Source: Patescibacteria group bacterium
Lineage (GTDB): Bacteria; Patescibacteriota; Patescibacteriia; JBHPGJ01
Length of the DNA: 64,000 bases
NCBI GenBank assembly: GCA_042570545.1
Contig: JBHPGJ010000003.1
Coordinates: 8,214-72,213 of the forward strand
Direction of reading: 5' to 3'
Shown here: positions 1 to 34,955 of the stretch, one piece after another
Layout: every line of letters starts with the position of its first letter
How positions within the stretch are numbered: the stretch's first letter is position 1
Position numbers and translations under genes: made by a program
The notes under the pieces: model-generated
What the model was told of the DNA's origin: nothing
The model's database searches: none
What the model saw: the letters and a program-made list of their open reading frames with translations, nothing else

Positions 1-1812
1 CTGGCTGACCAGGCTGACCATACATAGCTTGACCGATCTTTTGGACTACAGTATTTAATTCATTAGTCGCCGAATCAATAGCAGCTTTATCATCACTATC
101 TTTCACCTTTTTTACCGCTTCAACTTTTTCTTGAATTTCTTTCTTAGTTTTATCATCTACTTTACTGCCGGCATCTTTTAGGGCTTTCTCGGTAGAATAA
201 ATCAAAGTATCGGCATTATTACGAGCATCGATCAGCTCCCGTTTTTTCTTATCCTCAGTAGCGTGGGCTTCGGCATCCTTTTTCATATTATTAACCTCAT
301 CTTCTGACAGGGCCGTTGAGGCTTGTATGGTAATCGTCTGCTCCTTACCAGTACCTTTGTCTTTGGCTTTGACATTGAGGATACCATTGGCATCGATATC
401 AAAGGTAACTTCGATTTGCGGCACACCGCGCGGAGCGGGCGGGATCCCCTCAAGCATGAAACGGCCTAAAGTTTTGTTATCATTGGCCATTTCCCGCTCA
501 CCTTGGAGTACGTGAATCTCTACTGAGGGCTGGTTGTCACCCGCCGTGGAGAATACTTGCTGTTTAGAGGTTGGAATAGTAGTATTGCGCTCAATCAATG
601 GAGTACGCACCCCACCCAACGTTTCTAAGCCCAAGGTCAACGGAGTAACATCAAGTAGTAAGACATCTTTAACATCACCTTGCAACACACCAGCCTGTAC
701 GGCGGCGCCCAGGGCTACTACTTCATCGGGATTGATGCCAACGTGCGGTTTTTTGCCAAAGAATTCTTCAACTTTTTTCTGGACTAGCGGCATTCGTGTC
801 TGTCCGCCTACTAGTAATACTTCATTTACATCTGACGGCTTCATACCAGCATCGTCTAAGGCTTTTTTAACCGGGTCAAAGGTCTTGTCGATCATATCAC
901 CGACTAGTTCTTCTAGCTTAGCTCTAGTTAGGGTCAATTGCATGTGTTTGGGACCATCATCATCAGTGGTGATAAAGGGCTGATTGATTTCTGTTTCCGC
1001 AGTAGTTGATAATTCGTGCTTAGCCTTCTCGGCTGCTTCTTTCAAACGCTGGAGAGCTAGATTGTCTTTAGACAAATCAATACCTTCCTGCTTTTTATAT
1101 TCATCTACTATCCAATCGATCAATACTTTATCCAGATCATCTCCGCCCAGATGAGTATTACCGTTGGTCGCTTTAACTTCGACGGTGTCTTCAGATACTT
1201 CAAGAATTGAAATATCAAATGTGCCACCGCCTAAATCATAGACAGCAATCTTTTCATCTTTTTTCTTGTTAAAGCCATAGGCTAGAGCGGCGGCGGTTGG
1301 TTCATTAATAATGCGTTTAACTTCAAAACCAGCTATCTTTCCGGCGTCTTTGGTAGCTTGACGCTGCGAGTCGTCAAAATAAGCCGGCACGGTGATAACA
1401 GCTTCTTTAATCTCTTCACCAAGTTTTTCCTCGGCATCCGCTTTTAATTTCTGTAATATCATAGCCGAAATTTCTTGCGGTGTATACTCTTTATCCGACA
1501 TTTTTACTTTTACTCCCTCACCCGCTTGATTGATGGTAAAAGGGAAAAGCTTGATATCACGCTGGACTTCATCATCCGAGTGACGTCGGCCGATCAAACG
1601 CTTGAGGGAAAACAAAGTGTTTTCAGCATTTGTTACGGCTTGCCGTTTAGCTAACAATCCAGCTAGACGCTCCCCTTTCTTATTGACGGCTACTATTGAA
1701 GGAGTTGTACGATTACCCTCTTTATTTTCTAAGATCTTAGGCTCACCACCTTCGATTATAGCCATAGCCGAGTTAGTTGTGCCTAGATCTATTCCTAATA
1801 TCTTACCCATAT
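1..1812 (-). CDS. dnaK: Molecular chaperone DnaK (Hsp70). N-terminus is complete and the gene runs off the window start.
   Basis: Reverse-strand translation from ATG at 1812 gives [22 protein letters not shown]...[12 protein letters not shown]...[11 protein letters not shown]...[15 protein letters not shown], the canonical Hsp70 motifs. The ORF is absent from the provided track only because it has no stop within the window. Confidence 0.95.
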
Positions 1813-1847
1813 ATTTGATTAAATTTATTCCTTAATTAATAAATAAT

Positions 1848-2180
1848 TTATTTAATAAAATTATCGATAGCGTTTGGTTCAGTCATTATCTCGTGGATAT
1901 CCATTACATCATCATCAGTAACATCATCAGCGCCGTCTAAGCCGATAATTTCTTCAGCCGATAAGTCGGTAATAACACCAGAAGCTTTAAGACCAAGCGG
2001 ATTCATCGACAAGACGGATACCACTCCTGAGCCGCAGTGCGAGCACTGGATAAATGTTAAGACTTGCTGATCTTTTTCGCCCAGTACTCTGACATTCTGA
2101 AAATTATAGGCAGTACTGCACACCGGACATCGTCCGTTTAATCGCATATTGAAACTGTTTGGATTTTGAAAGCGTTGCAT
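1848..2180 (-). CDS. Small zinc-ribbon protein (CxxC...CxxC) with an acidic C-terminal tail, immediately upstream of dnaK
   Basis: ORF track: 110 aa. Motifs CPVCS and CSHCG are about 25 aa apart, followed by the D/E-rich tail DGADDVTDDDVMDIHEIM. The true start may be the internal MRLNGR. Confidence 0.4.
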   Translation of the reverse strand: MQRFQNPNSFNMRLNGRCPVCSTAYNFQNVRVLGEKDQQVLTFIQCSHCGSGVVSVLSMNPLGLKASGVITDLSAEEIIGLDGADDVTDDDVMDIHEIMTEPNAIDNFIK

Positions 2181-2275
2181 ACGTTATTTAGTTTGACAAA
2201 ATGTTTTAATTATGGTTTACTACCGCTATAAATCGTTCCCGCGGTCTTTAACTTCTCACCGCGAGGGGGTGCACC

Positions 2276-2701
2276 TTGCATTTGAAGATCGCCAACATAT
2301 CAGTTGTCCGCCCCAAGATACGCGTGAAGCTTTTGCTTTGCACCATGGCCATGATCATCCCTGGCCTCGCATTTCTCTACTTCCTCCGGTCTTCTGACCA
2401 TGCTGCCACCTTCATCTTTCACGGGTATCTGATCTGCCTTGCGGGTTACGTTTGCCTTCGGGCTAAGAAAATCACCGCTGAAAACACGTTGGACATACCC
2501 TGGTACGAAAGTACCTATCTCGTAGGAGGTTACATTGCCCTAGTGTTACTGATCATCAACCTGTTGCTGTCTGCAGCCAATCACACTTTGGGTTTTGCCC
2601 TGCTGATCCTGCTGGCCGATGTTTTCTATCTGGCCATCACCATGTTCACCATTTCCTACGCGTTCTATGCGCGTGAAGATCACTTAGCACGGGATACTTA
2701 A
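2276..2701 (+). CDS. Small polytopic membrane protein (about 4 TM) in a GC-rich island. The alternative start at ATG 2345 (MAMIIPGLAF) is more plausible.
   Basis: ORF track: 141 aa. Hydrophobic segments IIPGLAFLYF, YLICLAGYVCL, GGYIALVLLIINLLL and LLILLADVFYLAITMF. GC content is clearly higher than the flanks. Confidence 0.45.
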   Translation: MHLKIANISVVRPKIRVKLLLCTMAMIIPGLAFLYFLRSSDHAATFIFHGYLICLAGYVCLRAKKITAENTLDIPWYESTYLVGGYIALVLLIINLLLSAANHTLGFALLILLADVFYLAITMFTISYAFYAREDHLARDT

Positions 2702-2730
2702 CCCAGCGTCACGATGCGTGCGGCGCCCCA

Positions 2731-2770
2731 GCCTTCATTATGCTTCGGCAGAAGAAGGCTTTATTTTATT
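2731..2770 (+). terminator. Rho-independent terminator after the GC-rich membrane-protein ORF
   Basis: Hairpin gccttc-attatgcttcggcaga-gaaggc followed by tttattttatt. Confidence 0.5.
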
Positions 2771-2790
2771 CGTAGAAAGTACATATTCCT

Positions 2791-2882
2791 GGGGCAGTCG
2801 CGCGGTTATGATTTTTAAACTGGCAATTTTAACCGTGGGACTGCCCCAAGTCTCAAATCATATAGAACAAGTTTGAGAGACT
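2791..2882. other. Two consecutive strong stem-loops between convergent genes, including a 17-bp imperfect stem
   Basis: The first pairs ggggcagtcgcgcggtt (2791-2807) with aaccgtgggactgcccc (2831-2847). The second pairs agtctcaaa (2849-2857) with tttgagagact (2872-2882). Neither is followed by a clean U-tract on either strand. Confidence 0.4.
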
Positions 2883-2888
2883 TGGGAG

Positions 2889-3299
2889 CTATTTATCAAT
2901 CTGGACAGAAATTTTCTTTGGCTTGGCTTCTTCCTTTTTGGGAATAGTGATTTTTAAAACACCATCGGTAAATTTGGCATCGGCCTTGTCGCCGGCAACG
3001 GCTTTGGGCAGCGATACGGCCCGGTAGAATGAACCAGAACGTATCTCTTTGCGGTAGTAGCTTTTCTCATCTACTTCTGATTTTTTCTCCGTTTTTCCGG
3101 AAAGTGTCAGAACGTTGTCTTCGATCTCGATATCAACATCTTCTGGCTTGATACCGGCTAGGGGCGTCTCGACAATGACATTATCATGATCTTCATAGAC
3201 ATCTATGGCCGGAGTAAACGATACCATTTTGTCGGGTACATCGAAGAATTCTTCCATATCGGGCCACATCATACGCGGTGACCTTTTAATAAGTGACAT
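2889..3299 (-). CDS. Small heat-shock protein, Hsp20/alpha-crystallin family
   Basis: 136 aa. Alpha-crystallin domain pattern (AIDVYEDHDNVIVETPLAGIKPEDVDIEIEDNVLTLSGKTE...SGSFYRAVSLP...DGVLKITIPK). Lies inside the hrcA-grpE heat-shock operon. Confidence 0.85.
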   Translation of the reverse strand: MSLIKRSPRMMWPDMEEFFDVPDKMVSFTPAIDVYEDHDNVIVETPLAGIKPEDVDIEIEDNVLTLSGKTEKKSEVDEKSYYRKEIRSGSFYRAVSLPKAVAGDKADAKFTDGVLKITIPKKEEAKPKKISVQIDK

Positions 3300-3300
3300 A

Positions 3301-3834
3301 TTATTTTACACCTCCTTCTTTATTATCTTCTCTTTTCTTTGATTCAGCAGCAACAATGACTTTGGCTGCTTGAATTATGTTTTCTTGCATTTGATAGCCC
3401 GGCTCAACTACTCCGATAATATCATTCGGTTTATGCTTATCTGACGGCCGGTGCTCGACGGCTTCATGAAACCATGGATTAAAATGCTTGGTTTCGACTT
3501 CTTTAATATTTAAATTACTTAACATATCGTCTAGCTGTTTCTTGATAGCAATAATACCCTTGACCCAGTCTTTTTCTTTCTCGTTTTCGGGGATATGTTC
3601 GGCAGCACGTTTAAAATTAGTATGCAGCGGTAGAAAGTCCAAGATCATGGCAACGGTAGCAAATTTAGCCAGTTCTTCTTTTTCTTTTTCTACCTGCTTC
3701 TTATAATTTAGATAATCAGCCTTGGCTCGCTGCCAGCCGGCCAGATATTCATCGGCTTTTTTCTTTAAAGCGGTAAATTCGTTATCACTGGTTGATTGGG
3801 TTTGAACTTCGTCTTCCTTTTTATCTTTGGTCAT
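3301..3834 (-). CDS. grpE: Nucleotide exchange factor GrpE
   Basis: 177 aa with a coiled-coil N-terminus and the GrpE C-terminal domain (DFLPLHTNFKRA...KGIIAIKKQLDDML). Positioned between hrcA and hsp20/dnaK. Confidence 0.8.
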   Translation of the reverse strand: MTKDKKEDEVQTQSTSDNEFTALKKKADEYLAGWQRAKADYLNYKKQVEKEKEELAKFATVAMILDFLPLHTNFKRAAEHIPENEKEKDWVKGIIAIKKQLDDMLSNLNIKEVETKHFNPWFHEAVEHRPSDKHKPNDIIGVVEPGYQMQENIIQAAKVIVAAESKKREDNKEGGVK

Positions 3835-3842
3835 TAATATTT

Positions 3843-4529
3843 TTATAATTTAGTTACTAATTGTTTGGAATAAATAAGTAGAGCGTGGTGATGCTGATAA
3901 TCCTGCCGGATGGGACCAAGAATGCCCATTAATCCGCGTTTGCTTTTGGTAGCTATAAAACCACATTGAACGCCAAAAGGATTTTCTTTACCAATAAATA
4001 CCTCTACCTGGTTATCTATCTTTTCAAACAGCTCTTCCACTACCTCGTCTAAATGATCTATAACATCAGACAGCTCATAAATTATTTCCTGTTGGGCAAA
4101 CTCTGGCTGACGGAATAGATTAGCAATGCCCGTGTAGAAATTATCATTAGGATTGAAGCTGAAGATCACCGTCTGCTTGGACATTATTGCCATTTCTTTG
4201 GCCATTTCTTTTATCGACTGATTGATCTCTGTCCCCCGTTTCAACGCGTCAGCTAATTGTTTTTCCATTGATTTTGCTAATGCCGCTTCCTTCATTCCAG
4301 AATCAAGATAGAATTTCCAGGCTTTTTCTGTCGGTAAACGGCCAGCCGAAGTATGCGGCTGATAAAGATAACCTTGTTTATCCAAATCCATCATTTCGTT
4401 GCGGATGGTAGCTGGAGAAACTTTAACGTTGTACTTATCAACAATCACAGATGAACCAACGGGCTGGGCTTCTCGGATATGTTCGCGAATAATAGTTGTT
4501 AAAAGCTCCTTTTTGCGGTCAGTTAGCAT
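3843..4529 (-). CDS. hrcA: Heat-inducible transcriptional repressor HrcA
   Basis: 228 aa. N-terminal winged helix (LLTTIIREHIREAQPVGSSVIV...SPATIRNEMMDLDKQGYL). A CIRCE operator lies immediately upstream, followed by grpE. Confidence 0.85.
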   Translation of the reverse strand: MLTDRKKELLTTIIREHIREAQPVGSSVIVDKYNVKVSPATIRNEMMDLDKQGYLYQPHTSAGRLPTEKAWKFYLDSGMKEAALAKSMEKQLADALKRGTEINQSIKEMAKEMAIMSKQTVIFSFNPNDNFYTGIANLFRQPEFAQQEIIYELSDVIDHLDEVVEELFEKIDNQVEVFIGKENPFGVQCGFIATKSKRGLMGILGPIRQDYQHHHALLIYSKQLVTKL

Positions 4530-4567
4530 ATTTTTGCCTATGTTTAATACAGCTTATGGCTACTAAT

Positions 4568-4594
4568 TAGCACTCTATCATTGAGAGTGCTAAT
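4568..4594. promoter_or_regulatory. CIRCE operator (HrcA binding site), perfect inverted repeat
   Basis: TTAGCACTC-tatcattga-GAGTGCTAA read directly: a 9-bp inverted repeat with a 9-bp spacer, matching the CIRCE consensus exactly. Confidence 0.9.
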
Positions 4595-4597
4595 GTA

Positions 4598-4626
4598 TTA
4601 TATATACCCATATATTTAGTGTCAAA
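4598..4626 (-). promoter_or_regulatory. Sigma70-type promoter for the hrcA operon, consensus -35 and -10
   Basis: On the minus strand: TTGACA-N17-TATAAT (plus-strand tgtcaa 4621-4626 and attata 4598-4603), immediately followed by CIRCE and about 70 nt before the hrcA start. Confidence 0.7.
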
Positions 4627-4751
4627 TTATTGTATCAGGGTATGAATTATTGAAGAAGAATACCCGTTACCCATAAGTAAATATTTATCATATGCTAGCT
4701 TAAAACCGACCTCCTGATAGACTCCTATCTTAACTAAGGTATATATAATTT

Positions 4752-5663
4752 TTATCCAGCGGTTCCTTGTGATACAGCGTTGAGGACAAAGTCGATAAAT
4801 ATCCAACTTAAAACGACTAATACAATGCCAATGGTAGCATATAACAATGTACTTTTACCAACTCTTATTTTTTCCTGATTACCGCCAGATAAGATCCAGG
4901 TAAAGCCACCCCAGACGAACATAAAGGTTCCAAAAACTCCTAGCACGCCAAGAGCAATACGGATTATATTGGTCATTACGCACTTTATATCATCGCAACC
5001 TGCCGGATTAGGTATGGTGGCCGTCCTAGAAAAAAGATAAGCTGAGGTGCTGGCTTCAGCGGCAGTCATGGGCACGGACAAGCCCGGGACATTGACCCCA
5101 TCACAACCAGAATTAGACATAGTGGACAGGTGGGTATGACCATCGTGGATATCAATATATTTAGCTTTGCCGTGACAGGCACCGCTCGGAAAGATCAGTG
5201 CACGAATGGCAGTGTATAACGCCGGCTCCATAGTTGGATCGTTAGCATTAAAATCAACCGCTTCGGCACCGGTAGTTCCATACCGGCCGCCATAGTGACA
5301 TGAATAAATAGCATGACAGGCGTTCGTTTGACAGGCTACGTCCATCCCGCAATCTCTTATACCGCGGGTGTAGTTGAGAGTGTCAACTTGGGGATCTATC
5401 TGATAAGTATATATTTTATTTGGGTCAATTAATGTCGGGTCGGGAATATTGGTTTGTATACAACCAATAAGACTATTGAGATCGGCTGAATTTTGGGCTG
5501 GGAATGGTACCCCGTACTGCGCCGCCAGCAAACTAGGATCATTACAAACGGCTTGCGCCAGCTTATAGCTGTCACCTTCGGCAGCTATAGTTTCTGTTGG
5601 GACAACAACCAGTGTAATTACAGTTAAAACACCAAACAATATTATTAACTTGATTTTATTCAT
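4752..5663 (-). CDS. Secreted cysteine-rich protein with a C-terminal double-TM anchor. Possibly a VirB2/TrbC-like pilin topology with a large N-terminal domain.
   Basis: 303 aa. N-terminal signal peptide (MNKIKLIILFGVLTVITLVVVP). About 11 Cys and many His in the central domain. The C-terminus carries two hydrophobic helices (ALGVLGVFGTFMFVWGGFTWIL / TLLYATIGIVLVVLSWIFIDFVL) separated by a short basic loop. Confidence 0.55.
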   Translation of the reverse strand: MNKIKLIILFGVLTVITLVVVPTETIAAEGDSYKLAQAVCNDPSLLAAQYGVPFPAQNSADLNSLIGCIQTNIPDPTLIDPNKIYTYQIDPQVDTLNYTRGIRDCGMDVACQTNACHAIYSCHYGGRYGTTGAEAVDFNANDPTMEPALYTAIRALIFPSGACHGKAKYIDIHDGHTHLSTMSNSGCDGVNVPGLSVPMTAAEASTSAYLFSRTATIPNPAGCDDIKCVMTNIIRIALGVLGVFGTFMFVWGGFTWILSGGNQEKIRVGKSTLLYATIGIVLVVLSWIFIDFVLNAVSQGTAG

Positions 5664-5869
5664 ATTAACATTATATCATTTTTTGCTTACTTATTCAGCT
5701 AATAAATAATTGATACTTGCAATATCAAGAAAATTTTAATATTTATTATATTAATTAGAATAACGAGTTTAGTTCAGATACCATTGACAAAACTTAATTT
5801 TTGTAATAAATTCATTGGCTACATTTGAAGTTCGATAACAATTCACTCTTGCCTTAAAGGAGGCTAATT

Positions 5870-6628
5870 ATGAGCACCAGTCGAGTGATTGGTCTGGTGG
5901 TGGCGCTAGTTACGGCCGCTGCCAATTGGTTGGTTTTTTACTGGGTAGCCGTCAAATTTGGTAGCCCGGCGCCTGAGTTCATCGCTTGGATCGTTCTCCT
6001 GTCGGTCGTACTGCATGAGATCGGCCACCTGATCGTACTGGAGGCTAACGGTATCAAGACCTACCTGGTTTTTCTCGTCATCCTCGGTGGTGCCATACCT
6101 GATCCCAAACATAAAGACAAATACCTTGGCCTACCGCATCACACCCTGGCCCAGATATACTTGGCCGGTGTTACCCTGAATCTACTGATGGTGCTGGGCT
6201 CAGTAGTACTGTACTGGCTGGGTGATATCTCAGCTCGAGAGCTTGGCCAGATCACCAACCTCAGCGGCATCATGATCCTCTTCAACCTCTTGCCCATCTG
6301 GATCTTCGACGGTGGACGGTTTGCTAAGATATTCTTTGACAGCTCGCCGGAGGACAAGGATACGGGTTACGTGATCAAATTCACCGCCATCATCGGCGTC
6401 GTCTTCTTCCTTCTGACCCTACTGACGGAGTACAGCTTCATCTTCTCACTGCTGCTGCTCTTCTGGGGGTTGCATTTCCGAGCCAATCACGACGATCCTA
6501 TGGGCAGCCACAGTAAGCAGGCCATGTCTAAGAAACAGCTCAAAGGCTGGGCCTACTACTACGCCGCCCTGATGATACTGGCCGCCTACTTTATGGCCTC
6601 AACTGATAAGTGGTACATCAGCGGCTGA
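5870..6628 (+). CDS. M50 (site-2 protease/SpoIVFB-like) family integral-membrane zinc metalloprotease, encoded on a GC-rich island
   Basis: 252 aa. HEIGH zinc-binding motif in a TM helix (LHEIGHLIVLE) and a second motif NLLPIWIFDGG (the M50 LDG motif). About 6 TM segments. Strong SD aaaggaggctaattATG. GC about 55% against about 38% flanks. Confidence 0.7.
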   Translation: MSTSRVIGLVVALVTAAANWLVFYWVAVKFGSPAPEFIAWIVLLSVVLHEIGHLIVLEANGIKTYLVFLVILGGAIPDPKHKDKYLGLPHHTLAQIYLAGVTLNLLMVLGSVVLYWLGDISARELGQITNLSGIMILFNLLPIWIFDGGRFAKIFFDSSPEDKDTGYVIKFTAIIGVVFFLLTLLTEYSFIFSLLLLFWGLHFRANHDDPMGSHSKQAMSKKQLKGWAYYYAALMILAAYFMASTDKWYISG

Positions 6629-6653
6629 ATAAATTTTGAAAGGAGGACGTACC

Positions 6654-6920
6654 ATGCGTGCACAACCAAAATACAGCAAAGAAGAGTTTGCCGCTATGGA
6701 GCCTCATAAGCATGTCATCGTCGACAGTGGAAATCGGACTTGGATAGTACTGATGAAGTACTCGCAAGGTGACGAGCCACCGTCGTTTCTGATGCGCTGC
6801 ACCGGCCAGAGAGCCCAGCGAATCACCTTGGACGATCAGAAAGGACTGATTGACGATGACGGTCTGCCAATACTCGAACTCAATCATCACACCGCCCGCA
6901 TCAAAGAGGTCGAGGATTAA
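6654..6920 (+). CDS. Small soluble protein of unknown function on the same GC-rich island. Start placed at ATG 6654, not the track start 6636.
   Basis: SD aaaggagga lies 7 nt before ATG 6654 (MRAQPKYSKEEFAAMEPHKHVIVDSG...). The track start at 6636 lies inside the SD. A terminator follows. Confidence 0.5.
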   Translation: MRAQPKYSKEEFAAMEPHKHVIVDSGNRTWIVLMKYSQGDEPPSFLMRCTGQRAQRITLDDQKGLIDDDGLPILELNHHTARIKEVED

Positions 6921-6946
6921 ATCATGTAGCTTTGCACACCCAACCG

Positions 6947-6987
6947 GGAGCAGATCATATCAGGTCTGCTCCTACTTATTTTTATTT
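6947..6987 (+). terminator. Rho-independent terminator ending the GC-rich island
   Basis: ggagcaga-tcatatcagg-tctgctcc (8-bp stem) followed by tacttatttttatttat. Confidence 0.6.
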
Positions 6988-6996
6988 ATATTCCAC

Positions 6997-7704
6997 TTAT
7001 AAATCTAGCAAGGCGCTCCAGCCTTGTCTTGAACGGCTGACCTCAGCCGGAAAAGTACCTTTAAATTTTGACACTCCTTCATGTATCTCGTAGTTCTTCA
7101 TGGTAAAGCCGGGTATTTCATTCATCAGTTCATTGATCTTATCTTCGAAAAATTCCTCCGCCTGTTCTTGATAATTTTCGGGTACGGTAAATATGCCTAA
7201 TTTGGCCTGGTCAATCTCTAGATCAATTGTATTGGTTGCTACTTGATCGACCATCACTTTTACATAAACCGGAGCTTTGATATACCGATTCAACATAGTA
7301 GAAATTTCCAGTCCCCCTTCTATTTTTTTAACTTGAACATCAGAAAAGATCGGGTCATCGCCCTCAAAGCGCTGCAGCCAGGAAGTGATCTCTTCATTAT
7401 TAGTACTAGTATCAACTTCTAATGTGCCGCTGAACAAATCATCAGCCCCGCTGGCATAATCGGCCGGGTCGCCGACAATTTTCATTGGTATCTTTTTCTT
7501 AATACTGGCCAAATCTTCAGCGCTGGTTTCGACACCCAGATCTTTTGGCTTATTCATACCAAAGACGGCCGAGATGCCAGGTATAGAATAAAGGCCAGTA
7601 GCACCAATGCCTATTATCAATACTAACAACACCGCAACAATAATTATAATCGCCAACCTTAAGCGATGTCTTTTTTTGGGGACTTCTTTTTTCTCTTCTT
7701 CCAT
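6997..7704 (-). CDS. Membrane-anchored protein, tandem paralog 2 (Lys-rich N-terminus, single TM, conserved G-L-x-x-I-P-G motif)
   Basis: 235 aa. KKEVPKKRHRLRL, then a TM, then GLYSIPGISAVFGMNKPKDLGVE. Shares architecture and motifs with the adjacent upstream gene. Confidence 0.6.
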   Translation of the reverse strand: MEEEKKEVPKKRHRLRLAIIIIVAVLLVLIIGIGATGLYSIPGISAVFGMNKPKDLGVETSAEDLASIKKKIPMKIVGDPADYASGADDLFSGTLEVDTSTNNEEITSWLQRFEGDDPIFSDVQVKKIEGGLEISTMLNRYIKAPVYVKVMVDQVATNTIDLEIDQAKLGIFTVPENYQEQAEEFFEDKINELMNEIPGFTMKNYEIHEGVSKFKGTFPAEVSRSRQGWSALLDL

Positions 7705-7728
7705 TTATTAAAGATATTAGAATAATGA

Positions 7729-8448
7729 TTACTCTACTAATTCAATTGTCTCTGGATAGGTGCCTTTAAAATCAACGAAGTTATCTTTAAAAATCAGTCG
7801 TTCGATGCTAAAACCTTCCACCAAACTCATACGATCACTTACCAACTCAGTGGCTGCTTCTTCAAATTGCTGGACAAAATTCTGAGGAATTGGTAGGCGA
7901 CCAATCTTGATCTGTTTGACGTCAAAAGACAAGGTCTTGTCCTTTGTCGTGGTAATATCCGATTTTATGTATATGGGCGAACTGATAAATTCATTTAATT
8001 TAAACGAGGCCTCAGCTCCGCCGTCATAAAATCTAACCTGAATACTTTCAAATACACCTGAGTTTTGAAAACGATCATTTACAAATGAAGAAAATTCTTC
8101 TGAAGTAACATCATTGGTGACCGGAACTGAACCGGTATAAACTCTATCAACCTCTAAGGGCGAGGTCGATGGTGGCGTGGGCAACTCTGATAATTTCCAG
8201 GGAGTTTTGGCCAGACCCGACGTGATCGCCTCATCACTTATCTCAACGCCCAGATCTATCGGCTTATGACTGCCGAATAAGTGAGTTAGCCCGGGAATAT
8301 TGAATAACCCGGTATAGCCGATAGCTAACAATGGCAAGATGACAAAAATAAAGAGGATAATTGATATCCATATCCATTTTTTCTTGCTTTTCTTTTTTGG
8401 TTTTTCCTCCTCTGGTTTATCTGGTTTGGATTCTGACTGTTCGTCCAT
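7729..8448 (-). CDS. Membrane-anchored protein, tandem paralog 1
   Basis: 239 aa. KPKKKSKKKW, then a TM, then GLFNIPGLTHLFGSHKPIDLGVE. Same architecture as 6997..7704. Confidence 0.6.
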   Translation of the reverse strand: MDEQSESKPDKPEEEKPKKKSKKKWIWISIILFIFVILPLLAIGYTGLFNIPGLTHLFGSHKPIDLGVEISDEAITSGLAKTPWKLSELPTPPSTSPLEVDRVYTGSVPVTNDVTSEEFSSFVNDRFQNSGVFESIQVRFYDGGAEASFKLNEFISSPIYIKSDITTTKDKTLSFDVKQIKIGRLPIPQNFVQQFEEAATELVSDRMSLVEGFSIERLIFKDNFVDFKGTYPETIELVE

Positions 8449-8521
8449 ATCAATAATTTAATGATAATTACTAGGTCATTCTACTCTAATCCTAACTATT
8501 AAATCAAGCTAGAAATAACTA

Positions 8522-8550
8522 TTGACAAAATATTTTGTGGGTATAGAATA
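8522..8550 (+). promoter_or_regulatory. Sigma70-like promoter driving an orphan GC-rich transcript
   Basis: TTGACA (8522-8527), a 16-nt spacer, then TAGAAT (8544-8549). No annotated CDS lies downstream on the plus strand. Confidence 0.45.
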
Positions 8551-8555
8551 CAGGC

Positions 8556-8868
8556 TCCTAAATCAATCTTGCGTTCTTTTTGGTCTTGTCGGATAGCTTG
8601 TTCTGTTTGCTCTCACACCGCCGTTGATCTGGCTGCCGGTGAACAAGAAAGATGTGCCGGCTAAATTCATAGCTCAGTAGGCAAAAATCCTTAAGGTGAG
8701 CGTTCTCTTACGAACTAGCAGCAAACTCGTCTGGGTTGATGTCGACTCAACTCTCTCCGAGTATAGGGGCAACAGATCGCCCCTTCATGGACGAACCAGC
8801 TAAGCTGCCTTCCCACAAGACCAATGTCTTACGCCTCTCTCTCATCGGACAGAGAGGCTTTATTTTTA
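8556..8868 (+). ncRNA. Candidate structured ncRNA of about 310 nt, unknown class, bounded by a promoter and an intrinsic terminator
   Basis: A 548-bp gap with no ORF of 60 aa or more. GC about 50% in a 38% genome. Terminator gcctctc-tctcatcggaca-gagaggc plus tttattttt at 8833-8867. No convincing SD-led ORF (the best is a 51-aa ORF without an SD). Confidence 0.3.
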
Positions 8869-8996
8869 TATTAAAGGACCCCATATCGCTATGAGGTCCC
8901 TAACTTCTAGTCAGAGATACGGTCAAACCAGCTGATGGATTTTTTCAGTGCTGTTGACAATAGTATCGGGCTCCCGATCGTTGGTTATCATCTACC

Positions 8997-9779
8997 CTAC
9001 TGCATTAATGTATCAATTGCACTCTTAATCTGATCAACTGGCAGGGCTCCCGAAACTGGAACAGTATTGCCATCTTTATCAATCAGTACTGAGTATGGTG
9101 TTCCAGTCCCTCCGGCAGCATTAGCATCAGCTAAGTGCTCATTTACCTTATCGGTATATTTACCACTATCTAAACAAGATTCAAATTCACTTCTATCCAA
9201 ACCAATATCAGCGGCAATTTCTGGAAGCTGCTCAGGCCTCAACCCATTATTAGAAGGTGTAACTTCAAACAATGCATCTACAAACTCCCAAAAACCATCG
9301 TTGCCTCCCAATTCGGCGGCACATTCTGAGGCCTCGGCTTCATTGCGTGCTTTACTGTGCAGTGACTCAAGTGGAAAATGTCGATAAACCCAGGCCACTT
9401 TACCATCATAATCATCAACTACTTGCTGCATAGTTGGGTGGAATCTTTTACAGAATGGACATTCGAGATCAGAAAATTCCACTAATACTACTTCGGCTTT
9501 ATTCAAGTCTCCTTTAACATGATCTTCATCAGTTACCGGCTTAATACTTATCGCACCCTCTGAGGGTAGAGTTGGCTCGGTTGGTATTGTATTTTCATCA
9601 ACTTCAGTTTTTGCACTAGCCACCGATCCGCTACTGTCATCACTCAGCAATATACTTGTGCTTATCACAAACCCAGTTGTTACCGCTAAAAAGATAGCTA
9701 CTAGTAATCCAAAGAAGAAAGATTTTTTCGGACCTAATAAATTTAATATACTTTTTTTTGACTGTTCGTTATTAATCAT
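8997..9779 (-). CDS. DsbA-family thiol:disulfide oxidoreductase (thioredoxin fold), membrane-anchored
   Basis: 260 aa. N-terminal TM, then CPFC active-site motif (EFSDLECPFCKRFHP) and a DsbA-like fold with a cis-Pro region (GTPYSVLID). Overlaps the upstream gene's stop by 8 nt. Confidence 0.8.
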   Translation of the reverse strand: MINNEQSKKSILNLLGPKKSFFFGLLVAIFLAVTTGFVISTSILLSDDSSGSVASAKTEVDENTIPTEPTLPSEGAISIKPVTDEDHVKGDLNKAEVVLVEFSDLECPFCKRFHPTMQQVVDDYDGKVAWVYRHFPLESLHSKARNEAEASECAAELGGNDGFWEFVDALFEVTPSNNGLRPEQLPEIAADIGLDRSEFESCLDSGKYTDKVNEHLADANAAGGTGTPYSVLIDKDGNTVPVSGALPVDQIKSAIDTLMQ

Positions 9780-10722
9780 TATGTTCTTCCTTTAATTTAT
9801 AAGCCTCTGGGCCTAGATCCAAATCAATCTCTGCCCAGATTTTTAATTCTGGAGTTTCATCAAGAGTTGGGTTAGCCAGTATAGACACTGTTTTGAAGAA
9901 TCTGCCACTTGGTTCTTCGTGAAGATTAGGATCAAAACTAACTGTTAGTATGCCCTCATCTCCGGGCAAAAGAGTAGAATTAGATATCTCAGCAGATGTA
10001 CAGGCACAGCTGGCTGGCGTGCCGGTTACATCAATTTTCTCTTCACCATTATAGATAAAGGGAAAATCATATTCGATTATACCAGCACTTTGTTTAATAA
10101 CTCCAAAATCATGTTCCACCTCATTAAACGCAAAATCACCCAAGACTGATTGATAGCTAGATGAAGATTTGGTTTGCTGTTTCTCAAAATCATCAGCATA
10201 CATAACATCACCCGTTGTTTGTAATTCTATAACTGAACCAACGCCAGCATTGCTAGCAGTATAAGTTAGCTGTTTATCCGGCTCGGCACTGGTAGTAAGA
10301 TATACTGAACGCTGAATCGGGCCAACAGCTTGAGGGCCATGAGCCAATGGATCAAAAACTACATGTACTTTAAAGTTATCACCCGGATCAACTACACCGT
10401 TCCAGGTGCTATTGTTATGCATCCCAAATTTTGCAGAAGTAGTTCCATCTGATAATTCCACAAAGGCGGTGGTGCACATACATGAAGTTTCGCCAGTTTT
10501 TATGACTAGTGGTTCGTTAGATTCATTTTTTAGGGTAAAGATGTGATTAACATCACCACCCATTATGTCGATATTTTCCCAATCGTGCGTAACTATAGCA
10601 TTGGCAGCAATGGCCCCTGATGGCCAGGCGATTTCAGCAGCCGGGTTTTTACCGCCAAATATCAATATGGCTGATATTCCAGCAATGATCACGCCACCGA
10701 TAATAAACCATGAAGTTTTCAT
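9772..10722 (-). CDS. Secreted protein with two DUF1573-like domains, each carrying a CxC motif
   Basis: 316 aa with a signal/anchor. The S-C-x-C-T signature occurs twice (GETSCMCTTAFVE; PASCACTSAEIS), each within a beta-rich, roughly 120-aa module. Confidence 0.55.
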   Translation of the reverse strand: MKTSWFIIGGVIIAGISAILIFGGKNPAAEIAWPSGAIAANAIVTHDWENIDIMGGDVNHIFTLKNESNEPLVIKTGETSCMCTTAFVELSDGTTSAKFGMHNNSTWNGVVDPGDNFKVHVVFDPLAHGPQAVGPIQRSVYLTTSAEPDKQLTYTASNAGVGSVIELQTTGDVMYADDFEKQQTKSSSSYQSVLGDFAFNEVEHDFGVIKQSAGIIEYDFPFIYNGEEKIDVTGTPASCACTSAEISNSTLLPGDEGILTVSFDPNLHEEPSGRFFKTVSILANPTLDETPELKIWAEIDLDLGPEAYKLKEEHND

Positions 10723-10772
10723 AAGATAAAAAACGTTAATTGTTTAAACGTATAGTTAAAACTAAATGGTTT

Positions 10773-11114
10773 TTACTCGATTAAAATAGTACTGCCAACA
10801 AGATTAGTCGGCCAAAGTAATATCTTATCTTCTTTCTTAATCCAACTGCTAAAATTATCGGACTTAGTGAATTGTACAAAGCTAGTTGCCAGCAGTGCAA
10901 TCACCGCGCCGACGACAATAGTTATTGCGGTTTTTTGGTATGGACCAGCCAAAACAAGGCAATGCTGCAGACAATTATTGTCTATGCCACAAGCACCAGC
11001 TTGACAGGTAGCTCCAGAATTTACGCTAGCATGTATTGTATTGTGTGGTACAAAGATAAAAACTACGCTTATTACTAATATGGCAAATATTTGTACCGCT
11101 GCTAGCTTTTTCAT
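10773..11114 (-). CDS. Small Cys-rich two-TM protein (CQAGACGIDNNCLQHC between the helices)
   Basis: 113 aa: TM1, then a 4-Cys cluster, then TM2. Sits directly upstream of the DUF1573 and DsbA genes on the same strand. Confidence 0.45.
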   Translation of the reverse strand: MKKLAAVQIFAILVISVVFIFVPHNTIHASVNSGATCQAGACGIDNNCLQHCLVLAGPYQKTAITIVVGAVIALLATSFVQFTKSDNFSSWIKKEDKILLWPTNLVGSTILIE

Positions 11115-11173
11115 AGATTGAGTATAGTATTGATAAATAATATTTTCAACGTATATTATTTATACTTATTTGG

Positions 11174-11866
11174 TTAAAACAATGAATAAACAATTACAGC
11201 CACCCCGCCAATTATACCCAGATAACCTAATATCTTCATTAATCCCGCTGTCCTGGCCAGATCTTTCTCCACTTGTTTCTCAGATTTATAGCTTAGAATA
11301 AAATCACCCTGACCTTTTTGTAGTACCATATTATTTTGATCACCGCCAACATAACCATAAGCATATACCGGACCACCAACTAGCAAAGCCTCTTCTTTTA
11401 CTTTATTCTGATGACCAGCCAGCATATTAACCACTCCCTTAAGTACCGGATTGTTAAGTTCGTCACCGGGACGTACTATTTGTTCGCCTAAAGATTGGGG
11501 TTCAATATTAGCACCCTGCGGATTGACAGCCAATTGTCCGGTGCTGTCCTGGATATAAAACGGCGCACTCTGTTTGTCGGAACTGGTTTTTTCCCAACGG
11601 CGCTGTTCGCGGCCCTGGTTGTCTTGAGTAACCGTTTCGCGCTGCAGTTCATATTCATAGTAAACACAATCGCGCTGGGTAAAGGGAGTTTTTAAAGATT
11701 GATTTGAGCCAACGGTGCCAATAATTTTAACAATTTGTCCGGGCTGGACCTTGTCCACCGTTAACGCCTGAGTTTGCTTAAGACTGGCGTGAGTTTGTTT
11801 TTTTCGTTTAGCCAAAAATATTAATAAGGCTCCTATTGCCATGGCTATTAATCCACCATATAACAT
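11174..11866 (-). CDS. Membrane protein with N- and C-terminal TM helices flanking a beta-rich domain (GIDE-like topology)
   Basis: 230 aa. TM at residues 1-20 and at the C-terminus (ILGYLGIIGGVAVIVYSLF). Confidence 0.45.
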   Translation of the reverse strand: MLYGGLIAMAIGALLIFLAKRKKQTHASLKQTQALTVDKVQPGQIVKIIGTVGSNQSLKTPFTQRDCVYYEYELQRETVTQDNQGREQRRWEKTSSDKQSAPFYIQDSTGQLAVNPQGANIEPQSLGEQIVRPGDELNNPVLKGVVNMLAGHQNKVKEEALLVGGPVYAYGYVGGDQNNMVLQKGQGDFILSYKSEKQVEKDLARTAGLMKILGYLGIIGGVAVIVYSLF

Positions 11867-11868
11867 TG

Positions 11869-12129
11869 TTACTTGCCTTTCTTAGGCTCGGTCAGAGCCT
11901 TAATTATTTTATCTACTACAGTTTCGTCATCATCAACTATCGCTTGAGCAATGCCTGGATCGTTTTTTATCACGTCAGACATTTCTTTGGCATAACGGTC
12001 GAGAAATTCTTCAGCCTTAATGCCGAGATCAGCAATCATTTTTTCCATAACCTGTGCTTCAACACCAATGTAATGCTCCCCACCGTCGCTGGTAACAATC
12101 TCCTCGGGTGTTGGTTTTTCATCTTCCAT
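11869..12129 (-). CDS. Small acidic hypothetical protein
   Basis: 86 aa, translationally coupled to the downstream gene. No recognisable motif. Confidence 0.4.
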   Translation of the reverse strand: MEDEKPTPEEIVTSDGGEHYIGVEAQVMEKMIADLGIKAEEFLDRYAKEMSDVIKNDPGIAQAIVDDDETVVDKIIKALTEPKKGK

Positions 12130-12208: not shown

Positions 12209-12784
12209 CTAACGGATCAGCCGGTGATGAGTAAACTTCTCGCGGTCGTTGCGCAGCTGAAGATACAGGTATTGGCCCGGTGGCAACCGGCCGGGATAGC
12301 TAACGACGTATCGTCCACTGCTCATATATTGACCATTCCATGACCAAGTGCGGTTACTGCCGACCACGCCAGCTAAGTAGAGTGATACCTGACCGGGTCG
12401 GTTGATGCTGAAATGGATCAATGATTGACCGGTGCTGATGTCGAAACTGACCGACATGGTGGTCTGTGGCGGACGATAGCGGTAACCTTGGTCGTTATAG
12501 ATCGTCCAGCGGAACGTTCCCCAGCTACGGTGGTGCCGAATCGGGCCTCGATGGTAACGGGGACGTAGTGGCCGGACTATATAGCGATAGCCCACTCGGC
12601 CATTACGATAGACCCGGGGTTGCTCATAGCAGTACTGATCCCGGAACGTGGTTTGCAGGCTGCGAAAGCCTACGCTTTGAGCGTTGGCATCATCGGCCAA
12701 GAAAATACTGGCCACTATGCCGATCAATATGGCAACCGTTCCACCGACTATGACTATTAGCAAAATGAGCGCGAATTTCTTCAC
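12209..12784 (-). CDS. Secreted or anchored Arg/Tyr-rich basic protein on a GC-rich island
   Basis: 191 aa with an N-terminal TM/signal. Repetitive YRxxR and RPxR pattern. GC about 53%. Confidence 0.45.
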   Translation of the reverse strand: MKKFALILLIVIVGGTVAILIGIVASIFLADDANAQSVGFRSLQTTFRDQYCYEQPRVYRNGRVGYRYIVRPLRPRYHRGPIRHHRSWGTFRWTIYNDQGYRYRPPQTTMSVSFDISTGQSLIHFSINRPGQVSLYLAGVVGSNRTWSWNGQYMSSGRYVVSYPGRLPPGQYLYLQLRNDREKFTHHRLIR

Positions 12785-13918: not shown

Positions 13919-14347
13919 ATGTCTGAGAAATGGACGCATTTTGTTGACAAGGATGAGAATGTCGGCACTGATGGCGGAGTAGCCGTTCTCGAAGTCAGTG
14001 ACGAAGTAAGGTCAGACCCCGAAGTTACCGGTATTTTCTTTTCTGGAGAACCCGAACACGGCGTGGAGCTGATCGAGGGCGACTGTGCTCCCGGCGATGT
14101 TGATGTCGACGAACTGATCACCCGACTGATGCCGCACGAGGACGAAATGCTGGAGCTGAACTACGGCGATCCGATTCAGCTCACCGGCACCCTGCTCGGT
14201 ATTGTACAATACGATCGTATCGGCCCGGATTGGTCGGCCATCGAGTACCCCGACAATCGCTTCCTACACCTGCGGCTGACCGATGGTACCGAGGCTTTAG
14301 TGCCAATCACGTTCATTGATCCTGACACCCTACGGGTAGTCATCTGA
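13919..14347 (+). CDS. Highly acidic small protein on a GC-rich island
   Basis: 142 aa. Strong SD aggaggtgggccATG. GC about 55%. A convergent terminator hairpin lies downstream (about 14370-14400). Confidence 0.5.
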   Translation: MSEKWTHFVDKDENVGTDGGVAVLEVSDEVRSDPEVTGIFFSGEPEHGVELIEGDCAPGDVDVDELITRLMPHEDEMLELNYGDPIQLTGTLLGIVQYDRIGPDWSAIEYPDNRFLHLRLTDGTEALVPITFIDPDTLRVVI

Positions 14348-14416: not shown

Positions 14417-17400
14417 CTATTCACTTATTTCCTCTCTGGGAATATATAAATCTTTTGACACACAAGTTCCATTCTCCTGACATCTCTTATTAGACGAACA
14501 GCCACAAACCTGGCAGTCGTTAATTAACTCATTATCCTCACAGAATAATGGCTTTTTTGACGAACATTCATTGATATAGGTCTTATCCGAACACTGCATT
14601 TTGAAATTACCAGTATGACGATTGTCATGCGAGAAGAGTGGCCAATCATTAATAGAGGGGATTTCCGGCACTCCTAAATCCCACACATAAATAGAACCAC
14701 GTTGCTTAGACCTATCATTAATAAAATCTTTATCGCGATTAGAGGTGGCTACGAGCTCCAATAAATTATCACCGTCAAGATCCACAATCATTGCTGGCGC
14801 GAGAGAATAAGACTCTGTGAGCTTTGGAAAGTCGGCTAATAGAGTGCCATCAAAATTCCAGGCAAAAACACCGCCACCATCATAAATACTACTATAATCA
14901 GTGGTGATAATCTCTGGTTCGCCGTCATTGTCTATATCTGCAGTAACGCTGCCGTATACATCAACCCAGGATGGGTTTTGTGGCCAGTCCTTGGCTATTG
15001 ATCCATCATGCTCAATCACAAATGTTTCAATATTATCATTACTAATTACCACTTCCAGGGTACCGTCTCCTTCAAAATCCGTTAGAGCAGGTGAAGAAAA
15101 GAAGTTGCCACCGCCTTGCAGGGCTGGCCAGCCTGTTAAATCTTGTCCATTTTTATCTAAGGCATAAACACCAAGGTCGTCCATCGTTCCAAATATTATA
15201 TCCGCGTTACCATCATTATCAATATCCCCAACTGCTGGTGAGTTAAATATATTTCCATCAATATCCACTGGCCAGCCGTTTACATATGAACAGTCAGAAT
15301 TAAGAACATTAATTCTTCCTGCAGATCTTTGATAGCCCACTTCTCTTAAGCTGATAATTACAATTTCTAACTCCTGATCTTCATCAAAGTTACCAACTGC
15401 TGGAGTGCCATATTCAACAAACCAATATTGATATGTAAAAGTATCAGTTAAGGTACATGTGGAGACAGGTGATGCATCATTATTAAGAATCTTAATTATA
15501 TTATCTTCTCCTTGTTGATCATGAATAATAACCTCAAGTTGCCCGTCTAGATCCAGATCCGCCATAGCCAGGCCTGTAATCTCTGATTCAAAATCCACTG
15601 GCCATCCTGGCACTTCTGATCCGTCTAAATTATAAGCATGAATTTGAGACGGTGAGGGTGAAAATCCCCAATTTTGAAAATGAACAACTATTTCATCTTT
15701 GCTATCATTATCAATGTCACCGACTACTGGTTTGTGCATATTTCCTCCAAGTAGTTTATCCCCGCTTACCCCGACATCAATCAAACCAATTTCATTTCCT
15801 GAAGCATTGTATATATGTAATTGGGGGGGGCAGTCACCAGCGTAAAATACTATCTCATTTTTACCATCGCCGTTAAAATCACCGACATTACCATCAAGAT
15901 CACCAGCCCATGCTTTACAATCAGCCAGTTCATGATCAATTCGCACAGGCCAACCCATTTTAAAATTATCAAAATATAATACTACCGTCTCCTCAGAATC
16001 GGAGTATATATCATAATTAACCATTAGTCTCAGCTCATATAAACCCTTGCTACCAATAACAGACGTATCCCAATATCCAATAATACTTTCATCAGTGTCA
16101 TCTAGCGTTAATCCAACATTGGACCAGTCGCCATCACTTATACGCCACTCAAGCACTGAATTTATTATATGATGCCCTTTTAAATCGCCTTTTATAACCA
16201 ATTCGTCGCCTATTCTATATATATCGTAATTCAACGGCTCATTAATTTTTACATTACTCACAAATATTGGAATAGTTTGTACAGACGATAAACCGCTCCC
16301 GTTAAAGACTTCGAGCTTCAAAGATATAGTATTATCCGGTGCGACCAAAGTATCAAGGCTGCCTAATGTCCCTCTATCAACCTCTAAAGTACCACTATTT
16401 TCTAGAGTGATGCCCTCGGTATACCACTGAGTTACTTCCTCTGGTTCGCCAACACCCCATGAAAGAGTATAATGGTCAAAGGTTGCTGTTTCCGAGGTGC
16501 CTTTTTTTGCCACACCGCTAATATTGATAGAATCTGTAACTTCATCATAATAAGTCGGGATCATAATACCTGCCAAGGGTTCATCAAATGTTGGCATTTT
16601 AATCGGAGTTTCGGGATCCCCAATCACATTTAGCTCATAAGCAACAAATCGTATATAAGGATCAGACAAATTACCAAAATTCTTAAACTTAGACTGGTAA
16701 TTTGCTTTTGCAATATTAGTAATGCCATCTACTATCATCGTATCAACAAACTGCCGATGAAACCTTTGCGAAGGCCCGTCTGTGGAATCAAATCTACCCC
16801 ACCCAAATCTGGAATTTCCAACAAAAGCAAATGCTCCGTTGTCATCCAGCACAAAATGCTCTGCAATAGAATCAGATTCTGTATAATCTCCCTCGTAATT
16901 CCAGTTGTCAAATGAGGCTGGATAGCATCCCTGAGAATATACCAAGAAATAATCTGTATTGGTCAGTTGATCCAAATCAGTATCTCCGCTGTCACCACAA
17001 TATGATCCTGGCGAATTAAACGGCGCATGACATAATTTCATATTATAAAGCGTACTGGAATGGCCTAAGTGGTTGATAAAATTAACGCCCTGATTCATGA
17101 TTTCGATTAATTCTGTATTAGACCATGAATAAACTTCAGAATCATAAATAGGATCAATTAAATAGTCTTCGTATAATCCATTAGTATTGTAACCATCATG
17201 GTAACCGCCCCATTTGATCTGCTCCATTGTTTCTGTAGCATATTCAGCCACTGTACCAAATCCCAAATGCTCCCCAACTGTTAATGCTTTTTTTAAGTAG
17301 TCAGCATCTGATTGCTCATAAGCAATTGTTTTACTGACGAAGGTCTGAACTTCAGCTGATGAATCAACTGGCGCTCTGCCTATATAAACATCGCCCATCA

Positions 17401-19955: not shown

Positions 19956-20378
19956 TCAAAAACGGGAAGCTGTCTTCCCGTTTTTATCCTGTTGCTTCAG
20001 TCCATGTCGGATAGCCGTGATTATACCGGTGGCTAGCGATACTAACCAAATAATCAGGGCCTTATATCCATACTGTCGGATATAATTAGTACACTTGATT
20101 ATCCGCCATGAGCCGATATGAGAGGCAAAAATCAGATTATGCCCAGCCGCTAGCCCGACTGTTGTCATGGCCAACAAACCAAGCCACCCGACAAAGCCGT
20201 GAAAACTAGTTGGCCCGGCGGCCAACAGGCCCATCTTTATACTAGCCAGCCAGTCAAGGGCCAGGCCGATTACCAAAACCTGAAAATATCGGCGACGGTA
20301 CCAGTGACTAAGTCCGTAAAGACCGTAGCAATATAGCACCAGAACGATTATGACAAGAACGACTGCGTCGTACATCAC
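19956..20378 (-). CDS. Polytopic membrane protein, unknown function
   Basis: 140 aa with about 4 TM. Confidence 0.45.
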   Translation of the reverse strand: MMYDAVVLVIIVLVLYCYGLYGLSHWYRRRYFQVLVIGLALDWLASIKMGLLAAGPTSFHGFVGWLGLLAMTTVGLAAGHNLIFASHIGSWRIIKCTNYIRQYGYKALIIWLVSLATGIITAIRHGLKQQDKNGKTASRF

Positions 20379-34443: not shown

Positions 34444-34788
34444 TCACTGGCTTGCATGGTGGGGGTCCTTTCCGTCAGAGGTCGGCTTTGAAATTACCTC
34501 TATAGTGAGGGGGTCAAGGTAATCTGACAGCGAACTGCCGAAAACGTCAGCCAAGCCGTTAAGCCGGGCGTAAAGCAATTGCCGTATTTGCCGGCGAGTG
34601 GGTTTGTCAAAATTGCCCTCCAGAGCAATATGACATCCTTGACGACAGTTTTCGTTTACCTTGCCGCATATAGTCGGGGCCAGACCGAGCAAATCCTGCA
34701 GAACAAAACGAGCGATGAAAAAGACAATGTTGCCGTAAATGCTTCTGATCAGCTGGCTTTGCCCAGTAACGGTATATTCAATATCCAT
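34444..34788 (-). CDS. Small hypothetical protein on a GC-rich island (about 115 aa from ATG 34788; a TTG four codons upstream is also possible)
   Basis: SD aggaggtga upstream. CGKVNENCRQGCH Cys/His cluster. GC about 52%. A terminator hairpin (aagcagagc...gctctgctt) lies downstream at 34386-34426. Confidence 0.4.
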   Translation of the reverse strand: MDIEYTVTGQSQLIRSIYGNIVFFIARFVLQDLLGLAPTICGKVNENCRQGCHIALEGNFDKPTRRQIRQLLYARLNGLADVFGSSLSDYLDPLTIEVISKPTSDGKDPHHASQ

Positions 34789-34955
34789 TTTCTTGATCAA
34801 CGAAATCACCTCCTTAATCAGGACTGTAAAAACTAGTGAGCACCAATTTATAAATGAACAGCAAAACGTTTGTTTTTGCTGTTCATTTTTGAGCTTAAGC
34901 ATTATAACAAAACGGCAAAATTAATACCAATTCAACATACATAGAGAGGTAGAAT

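Follow-up and report, generated by a model that had tools for sequence, protein, structure and literature searches.

Two adjacent genes in a Patescibacteria genome, encoding a 252-aa membrane protease of the M50 family and an 88-aa soluble protein, probably constitute a laterally acquired operon (positions 5870 to 6920) that came from a GC-richer donor of the same phylum, with the protease as an accessory enzyme and the 88-aa protein as an unrelated neighbour and not its partner. Direction and source of the transfer are inferred. Both open reading frames (ORFs) are co-oriented on the plus strand of the window, the 64,000-nucleotide stretch of one contig that we analysed, and the sequence and ORF list place them exactly where an earlier reading made from the letters alone (the sequence-only reading) had put them (Table 1). 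NCBI lists the same two proteins as ACFL04_00955 and ACFL04_00960 of a Patescibacteria group bacterium MAG, and exact copies of them are found on a single contig only. This is an ordinary case, in which the known M50 family gains a member on a small acquired island.

The island is flanked by two minus-strand genes, a pilin-like gene at 4752–5663 (PF18895) and a gene at 6997–7704; a metagenome scan with the flanking 235-aa protein, meant to reveal an empty site, returned only 5 loci at 44–52% identity, none of them with neighbours in common with the window, and no empty site came to light. Most of the expression signals named in the sequence-only reading were recovered. A strong Shine-Dalgarno sequence stands before each gene (AAAGGAGG in the case of the M50 gene), and the intrinsic terminator folds into a hairpin of -19.9 kcal/mol (z = -4.1) that none of 200 shuffled sequences equalled in stability. 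The proposed promoter is present as a match to 10 of the 12 consensus positions, but a consensus scan found 9 matches of this quality against 10.0 expected in shuffled sequence; because such matches are no commoner than in shuffles, the site is only a plausible, unproven promoter. The 88-aa gene begins after an intergenic gap of 25 nt, and co-transcription with the M50 gene is therefore likely, a conclusion with which its own Shine-Dalgarno sequence and the one terminator agree.

Table 1. Features of the island and its comparators, with their composition. Ranks are among 72 ORFs of the window; for CAI, rank 1 is the lowest value.
Feature	Position	Strand	GC	GC3 (rank)	CAI (rank)	Basis
AT-rich spacer between divergent pilin-like gene and M50 gene	5664–5869	+	16–26%			sequence, GC profile
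Promoter-like site TTGACA-17-TAAATT	5784–5812	+				10/12 consensus match
Shine-Dalgarno sequence AAAGGAGG of M50 gene	5856–5863	+				direct reading of sequence
M50/site-2-protease family gene, 252 aa	5870–6628	+	0.530	0.696 (1/72)	0.484 (1/72)	Pfam PF02163, motifs, fold
Shine-Dalgarno sequence AGGAGG of 88-aa gene, 7 nt before ATG	6641–6646	+				direct reading of sequence
88-aa soluble protein gene	6654–6920	+	0.509	0.573 (5)	0.572 (7)	five-member family; predicted small mostly-beta barrel (SH3/Tudor-like)
Intrinsic terminator: 11-bp stem, 6-nt loop (6946–6973), T-rich tail	6946–6987	+				pattern scan, RNA fold
Native M50 paralogue, 211 aa, comparator	60891–61526	-	0.362	0.340	0.655 (16/72)	PF02163, 53 bits
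ORFs of the window, mean (standard deviation)			about 0.41	0.375 (0.084)	0.677 (0.054)	

The compositional anomaly of the M50 gene is the strongest in the window. GC3 and CAI were computed per gene over 72 non-overlapping ORFs, with the r-protein/EF block as CAI reference; in this check, which the sequence-only reading had proposed, the M50 gene proved unlike its neighbours and extreme on both measures (z = +3.8 for GC3 and -3.6 for CAI). For comparison, 65 ORFs stay below a GC3 of 0.5, and these have a mean of 0.352 and a standard deviation of 0.043. GC1 and GC2 are ordinary, and the shift in composition therefore lies at synonymous sites. Taken together, the two genes have a GC content of ~52% against 40.9% for the whole window, so that the island is indeed GC-rich, although the figure of 55% given in the sequence-only reading was too high. 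The borders stand out in a profile of 100-nt steps: GC is 16–26% at 5650–5849, rises to 50–57% over most of 5850–6949 with a dip to 44–46% at the junction of the two genes, and is ~40% beyond the terminator.

The first gene of the island is an M50/site-2 protease family member with intact motifs, and its sequence and model make protease activity a reasonable expectation. It matches PF02163 at 40.5 bits (cut-off 27.2, E = 2.6e-10), and the catalytic features of the family are in place: firstly, a HEIGH motif at about residues 48–53, invariant in 11 sequences, lies inside a predicted helix (35–59); secondly, a later motif, NLLPIWIFDGG, contributes N139-LL-P142-IWIF-D147-G148, so that of the HEIGH and LDG motifs in the sequence-only reading the former stands while the latter reads FDG; thirdly, H49, E50, H53, N139, P142, D147 and G148 are invariant in the subfamily alignment, with H49, H53 and D147 as probable zinc ligands and E50 as the probable catalytic residue. 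The AF2 model (pLDDT 87.6) contains ~7 long helices, with a beta-hairpin after the HExxH helix, and its C-terminus is a loop followed by a transmembrane helix.

Among PDB sequences the subfamily profile matches only SpoIVFB (E = 7e-8) and MjS2P (1.6e-5), and the only Foldseek matches in the PDB with E below 0.01 are 3b4r, 8vjm and 8vjl (probability 1.00). The island protein has in common with M. jannaschii S2P (PDB 3B4R) and the core of B. subtilis SpoIVFB (8VJL/8VJM) the HExxH in a transmembrane helix, the NxxPxxxxDG in a later helix and the membrane-reentrant beta-hairpin after the HExxH helix, but identity is only 16–21% and the TM-score 0.40–0.46. Unlike these two proteins, it has in addition a conserved loop, DDPxGS, and a helix at the C-terminus; the hallmarks of the subfamily are an N-terminal VTAxxNW helix and a WGLxF-x-A-xx-DDPxGS loop that precedes the extra C-terminal helix. 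Between two subfamily members dN/dS is 0.037, and the subfamily is therefore under purifying selection.

Other characterized site-2 proteases differ from the island protein in domains and surroundings. Pfam detects neither a PDZ nor a CBS domain in it, whereas SpoIVFB has a CBS domain, and none of the elements that accompany the SpoIVFB-type group III enzymes (a pro-sigmaK-like substrate and the partners BofA and SpoIVFA) occurs near it. The group I enzymes RseP and RasP share with it the catalytic family and the general mechanism of intramembrane cleavage, but they bear one or two PDZ domains between the catalytic helices, and TIGR00054 reaches only 12.1 bits against a cut-off of 147.55; they also act in anti-sigma cascades, whereas no sigma or anti-sigma gene adjoins the island M50, in agreement with the sequence-only reading as to sigma factors. 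The RiPP-maturing M50 proteases (YydH/LiaK, NF058609; daptide HExxH, NF041824) are likewise small and can adjoin short ORFs, but NF058609 gives 12.6 bits on the island protein, far below its cut-off of 225, and RiPP-protease models give 22.2 bits against a cut-off of 300 on the native paralogue. The precursor peptide, rSAM enzyme and transporter of RiPP systems are missing near the island M50, and the 88-aa protein is, in its model, a folded domain, unlike a RiPP leader-core peptide.

The window encodes a second M50 protease of host-like composition (GC ~36%), as the sequence-only reading had stated. With only 21% identity to the island copy, it represents an old, separate lineage and not a recent duplicate.

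The 88-aa protein belongs to a family of its own. It has no match in Pfam, NCBIfam, PHROGs or PADLOC, none in the plasmid collection, and a word-indexed search returned only the protein itself. An exhaustive HMMER search of 1.84 billion representatives yielded four relatives of 82–108 aa (30–38% identity, E = 2e-6 to 1e-5) that align with it over its full length. From the alignment of these five sequences AF2 predicted a small mostly-beta barrel (pLDDT 91.2, pTM 0.81), a generic fold in which no transmembrane or hydrophobic segment is found. The relatives occur in unrelated contexts, such as beside an M23 peptidase and a 90-aa ORF, with a VTT/DedA-like gene, or after a PhdYeFM-type antitoxin pair, and each is GC-richer than its own flanks.

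The M50 subfamily is rare and scattered. Only 10 clusters represent it among 5.8 billion proteins, with a best non-self identity of 51%, and 185,579 species-representative genomes hold 8 loci at 37–49% identity in differing contexts. These 8 genomes are labelled Candidatus Microgenomatus, Saccharibacteria or 'Patescibacteria group bacterium', and two just 'bacterium'. The two Saccharibacteria-labelled copies are 36% identical to each other, whereas Saccharibacteria and Microgenomatus copies reach 55%. The neighbourhood changes at nearly every locus, with the exception of three (L004, L009 and L013) that share a syntenic His_Phos – M50 – MraZ order. At L001/L002 the M50 gene lies beside N6_N4 methyltransferase, DUF559 and HATPase_c_3 genes, at L008 beside MazE-like, T5orf172, N6_N4 methyltransferase and GmrSD genes, and elsewhere beside an ABC transporter (L014), a DUF5674 gene (L011) or a transaldolase (L016).

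These data suggest acquisition: an atypical GC3 and CAI within sharp borders is combined with a rare, scattered and context-free subfamily. Composition, rarity and scatter thus uphold the horizontal acquisition proposed in the sequence-only reading, but the second half of the case, a taxonomic origin different from that of the host, was not borne out, the relatives being of the host's own phylum. Because all identifiable relatives are Patescibacteria, the transfer would have been intra-phylum and not from a distant donor, with the proviso that the searches for the subfamily were word-indexed and pattern-based and that members outside Patescibacteria could have escaped them. A recent transfer cannot be traced, because the closest donor-side sequence is only 51% identical. 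No integrase, transposase or other mobility gene is present at the island and nothing convincing was seen in the way of flanking direct or inverted repeats or att sites; the nearest tRNA is >15 kb away, and Rfam finds nothing in or near the island.

The GC3 of the M50 gene relative to its surroundings differs among the loci of the subfamily. An ORF-based count placed it above the median of its neighbours at 10 of the 11 loci, but a recalculation with called genes showed this count to be inflated. Three loci (L001, L007 and L008) have mosaic flanks in which the M50 gene matches the GC-rich side, and the upstream flanking gene of L008 reaches a GC3 of 0.62; these GC-rich flanks are plausibly donor-type backgrounds. 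L014, which comes from an independent study, has an isolated single-gene spike like that of the window (0.58 versus 0.28–0.44), the excess is smaller in L011, L013, L015 and L016, and there is none in L004 and L009. The host-like GC3 of the syntenic trio L004/L009/L013 is as expected from long residence. In the most economical reading, the subfamily would be at home in GC-richer Patescibacteria and would have been passed to AT-richer ones, this genome included, its composition drifting to the host value in lineages where it has long resided.

The main alternative is vertical inheritance of a native M50 gene, in which the GC-richness of the synonymous sites would stem from a bias peculiar to the family, such as mRNA or translation selection on a polytopic membrane protein. 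A GC3 at or above that of the neighbours in most loci examined would fit this, as would the deep, star-like divergence among members, the lack of mobility hallmarks and the restriction of the relatives to one phylum. Nevertheless we regard it as unlikely. The adjoining, unrelated 88-aa gene is GC-rich as well, and a regional cause (the island) is therefore favoured over a cause specific to the gene family; the native paralogue and other membrane proteins of the window have a normal GC3; and the host-like trio indicates that an intrinsic bias is not required. Moreover, the subfamily is extremely patchy at 8 of 185,579 species representatives, and five further GC3-outlier ORFs in the window are all orphans without a Pfam match.

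The sequence-only reading had also called this M50 copy specialised and the pair reminiscent of regulated-proteolysis modules. In a functional regulated-proteolysis or maturation unit the M50 protease would have the 88-aa protein as its substrate, adaptor or inhibitor, much as SpoIVFB acts on soluble pro-sigmaK or as in the RiPP-maturing M50 enzymes. Several features would suit such a unit, including the tight operon layout (a short gap and a Shine-Dalgarno sequence before the second gene), the common terminator and the atypical composition of both genes. In 3 other contexts, too (L004/L009, L007 and L015), a co-oriented gene begins 16–32 nt past the M50 stop, and the best sequence-profile match is to SpoIVFB, whose substrate is not a transmembrane protein. 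However, the synteny check was negative in both directions: with HMMs of both families and six-frame translations of the fetched loci (contexts of 4 M50 homologues, 8 genome loci and the 4 relatives of the 88-aa protein), a relative of the 88-aa protein was found near other M50 genes in 0 of about 9 distinct contexts, and an M50 near other members of the 88-aa family in 0 of 4. The pairing is therefore unique to the window among the fetched loci, and a conserved partnership, for which adjacency would have to recur, was rejected. The small genes after the M50, 125 aa long in L004/L009 and 103 aa long in L007, are mutually unrelated, and a common origin of small downstream genes was likewise rejected, the L004 125-aa, L007 103-aa and L017 90-aa proteins giving hhalign probabilities <1% against the 88-aa profile. 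The M50 genes of L001 and L008 are monocistronic, each with a terminator of its own directly after it. Because the pairing is unique, the downstream genes elsewhere are unrelated and the M50 gene can stand by itself, the module is not supported. Further points against it are the generic beta-barrel fold of the 88-aa protein, which lacks a hydrophobic segment, the low score of the RiPP-protease model, and surroundings that lack sigma and anti-sigma factors, an rSAM enzyme and a RiPP precursor; we consider a functional module quite improbable.

Defence-type neighbourhoods at L001/L002 and L008, together with contexts and small downstream genes that vary from locus to locus, raise the idea of a nomadic cassette for immunity or defence that consists of the M50 gene alone and is directed, for example, against a membrane-targeting peptide toxin or a phage; this would account for its mobility. 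It seems to us very unlikely. PADLOC and PHROGs gave no match, and IMG/VR contains no relative of the M50 subfamily. Plasmids yield only distant generic M50 proteins, mostly from rhizobia, which align over roughly half of their length at <=35% identity, and the phage collection only one, at 29% identity, in a 635-kb uncultured phage. The defence genes at L008 and L001 are lower in GC3 than the M50 gene, which suggests separate insertions beside it, and its other neighbours include housekeeping genes (ABC transporter, transaldolase, MraZ). An extended form, which we hold to be a long shot, would make the subfamily with its DDPxGS loop and extra helix a self-contained, often exchanged membrane-immunity cassette and the downstream 88-, 103- and 125-aa genes its interchangeable specificity or regulatory partners; if this were true, the M50 protease might, for example, destroy toxins or phage proteins as they insert into the membrane.

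An assembly or binning artefact, that is, a chimeric join in the contig, can be put aside as hardly credible: the sequence stems from a MAG and one contig alone has the identical proteins, but the segment lies within a contig of 91 kb, begins exactly at a start codon after a host-like AT-rich spacer with its Shine-Dalgarno sequence, ends at a terminator that abuts the stop of the next gene, and has a counterpart in the same kind of single-gene spike at L014, from an independent study.

Under the preferred reading, lateral acquisition from within the phylum, a GC-richer Patescibacterium would have been the donor of a ~1.05-kb two-gene segment that entered a 41%-GC Patescibacteria genome. The product of the first gene would be a minimal M50 protease whose substrates, encoded elsewhere, are cut in their transmembrane segments or membrane-associated peptides; it would add to the membrane proteolysis carried out by the native M50 as an accessory enzyme. 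The second gene would encode a cytoplasmic beta-barrel of a separate, equally rare family, which either arrived on the same segment or was trapped beside the first gene, and would be co-transcribed with it yet not be a conserved partner. Transfers of individual genes in Patescibacteria are mostly intra-phylum (PMC12455944), and the island resembles the small islands described there in being a short atypical segment with relatives in other Patescibacteria; it differs from those transfers in having no integrase or prophage features.

Beyond annotation these results matter little: they describe one clean acquired segment of ~1 kb, free of a mobility gene, in an ultra-small Patescibacteria genome, and the exchange, most likely within the phylum, agrees with published surveys. 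They also define a rare M50 subfamily with intact motifs, extras of its own and purifying selection, which is scattered over lineages and has so far been seen only in Patescibacteria-type contigs. Foreign DNA is usually AT-rich. In this window every strong GC3 outlier except the M50 gene is an orphan, which may point to an accessory gene pool that is rich in GC and hence to the opposite bias.

Per-ORF composition revealed that, besides the island (the M50 protease gene and its 88-aa neighbor), five more ORFs in the window have a GC3 of 0.51–0.63 as compared to 0.35 for the core; a Pfam search matched none of these five. With the island genes counted, five of the seven GC3 outliers lie within the first 15 kb of the window. 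These data suggest that this genome, with its GC of 41%, has a variable region and a pool of GC-rich orphan or accessory genes.

The loci L001 (Microgenomatus) and L008, which carry M50-subfamily relatives of the island gene, display a compositional contrast of their own: blocks encoding R-M, GmrSD, T5orf172 and DUF559 proteins have a GC3 of 0.36–0.48, while adjoining genes reach 0.6–0.8. These blocks look like AT-rich defence islands inserted next to the M50 gene.

Downstream of the island, two tandem paralogues share a common architecture: a short, basic N-terminus, a single transmembrane anchor and then an extracytoplasmic domain. Relatives with 44–52% identity are found on five metagenome contigs, with no synteny in common. 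On the other side, the gene divergent from the island encodes a Cys-rich, pilin-like protein with an N-terminal signal/anchor.

In L017, a MAG locus with a relative of the 88-aa protein, a 90-aa ORF of similar GC3 (0.56) begins 35 nt after that family member, to which it has no detectable relatedness.

Elsewhere in the window, the C25 product is a surface protease, very large given the reduced genome, and a membrane protein carries a GIDE domain, a domain named as an E3 ubiquitin ligase.

Coordinates of features in the window and in related loci
Feature	Location	Strand	Detail
GC3 outlier ORF	2276-2701	+	no Pfam match
GC3 outlier ORF	12209-12784	-	no Pfam match
GC3 outlier ORF	13919-14347	+	no Pfam match
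GC3 outlier ORF	19956-20378	-	no Pfam match
GC3 outlier ORF	34444-34902	-	no Pfam match
Tandem paralogue 1	6997-7704	-	pair identity about 33%
Tandem paralogue 2	7729-8448	-	pair identity about 33%
303-aa protein	4752-5663	-	C-terminal T4SS_pilin domain (PF18895)
230-aa membrane protein	11174-11866	-	GIDE domain (PF12483, E = 1e-16)
1487-aa protein	14417-18880	-	C25 (gingipain-like) peptidase domain, its propeptide, FG-GAP repeats
L001 GC3 contrast	917-5412 vs 5464-12090		
L008 GC3 contrast	2064-5837		
L017 88-aa-family member and second ORF	6001-6273 and 6309-6581
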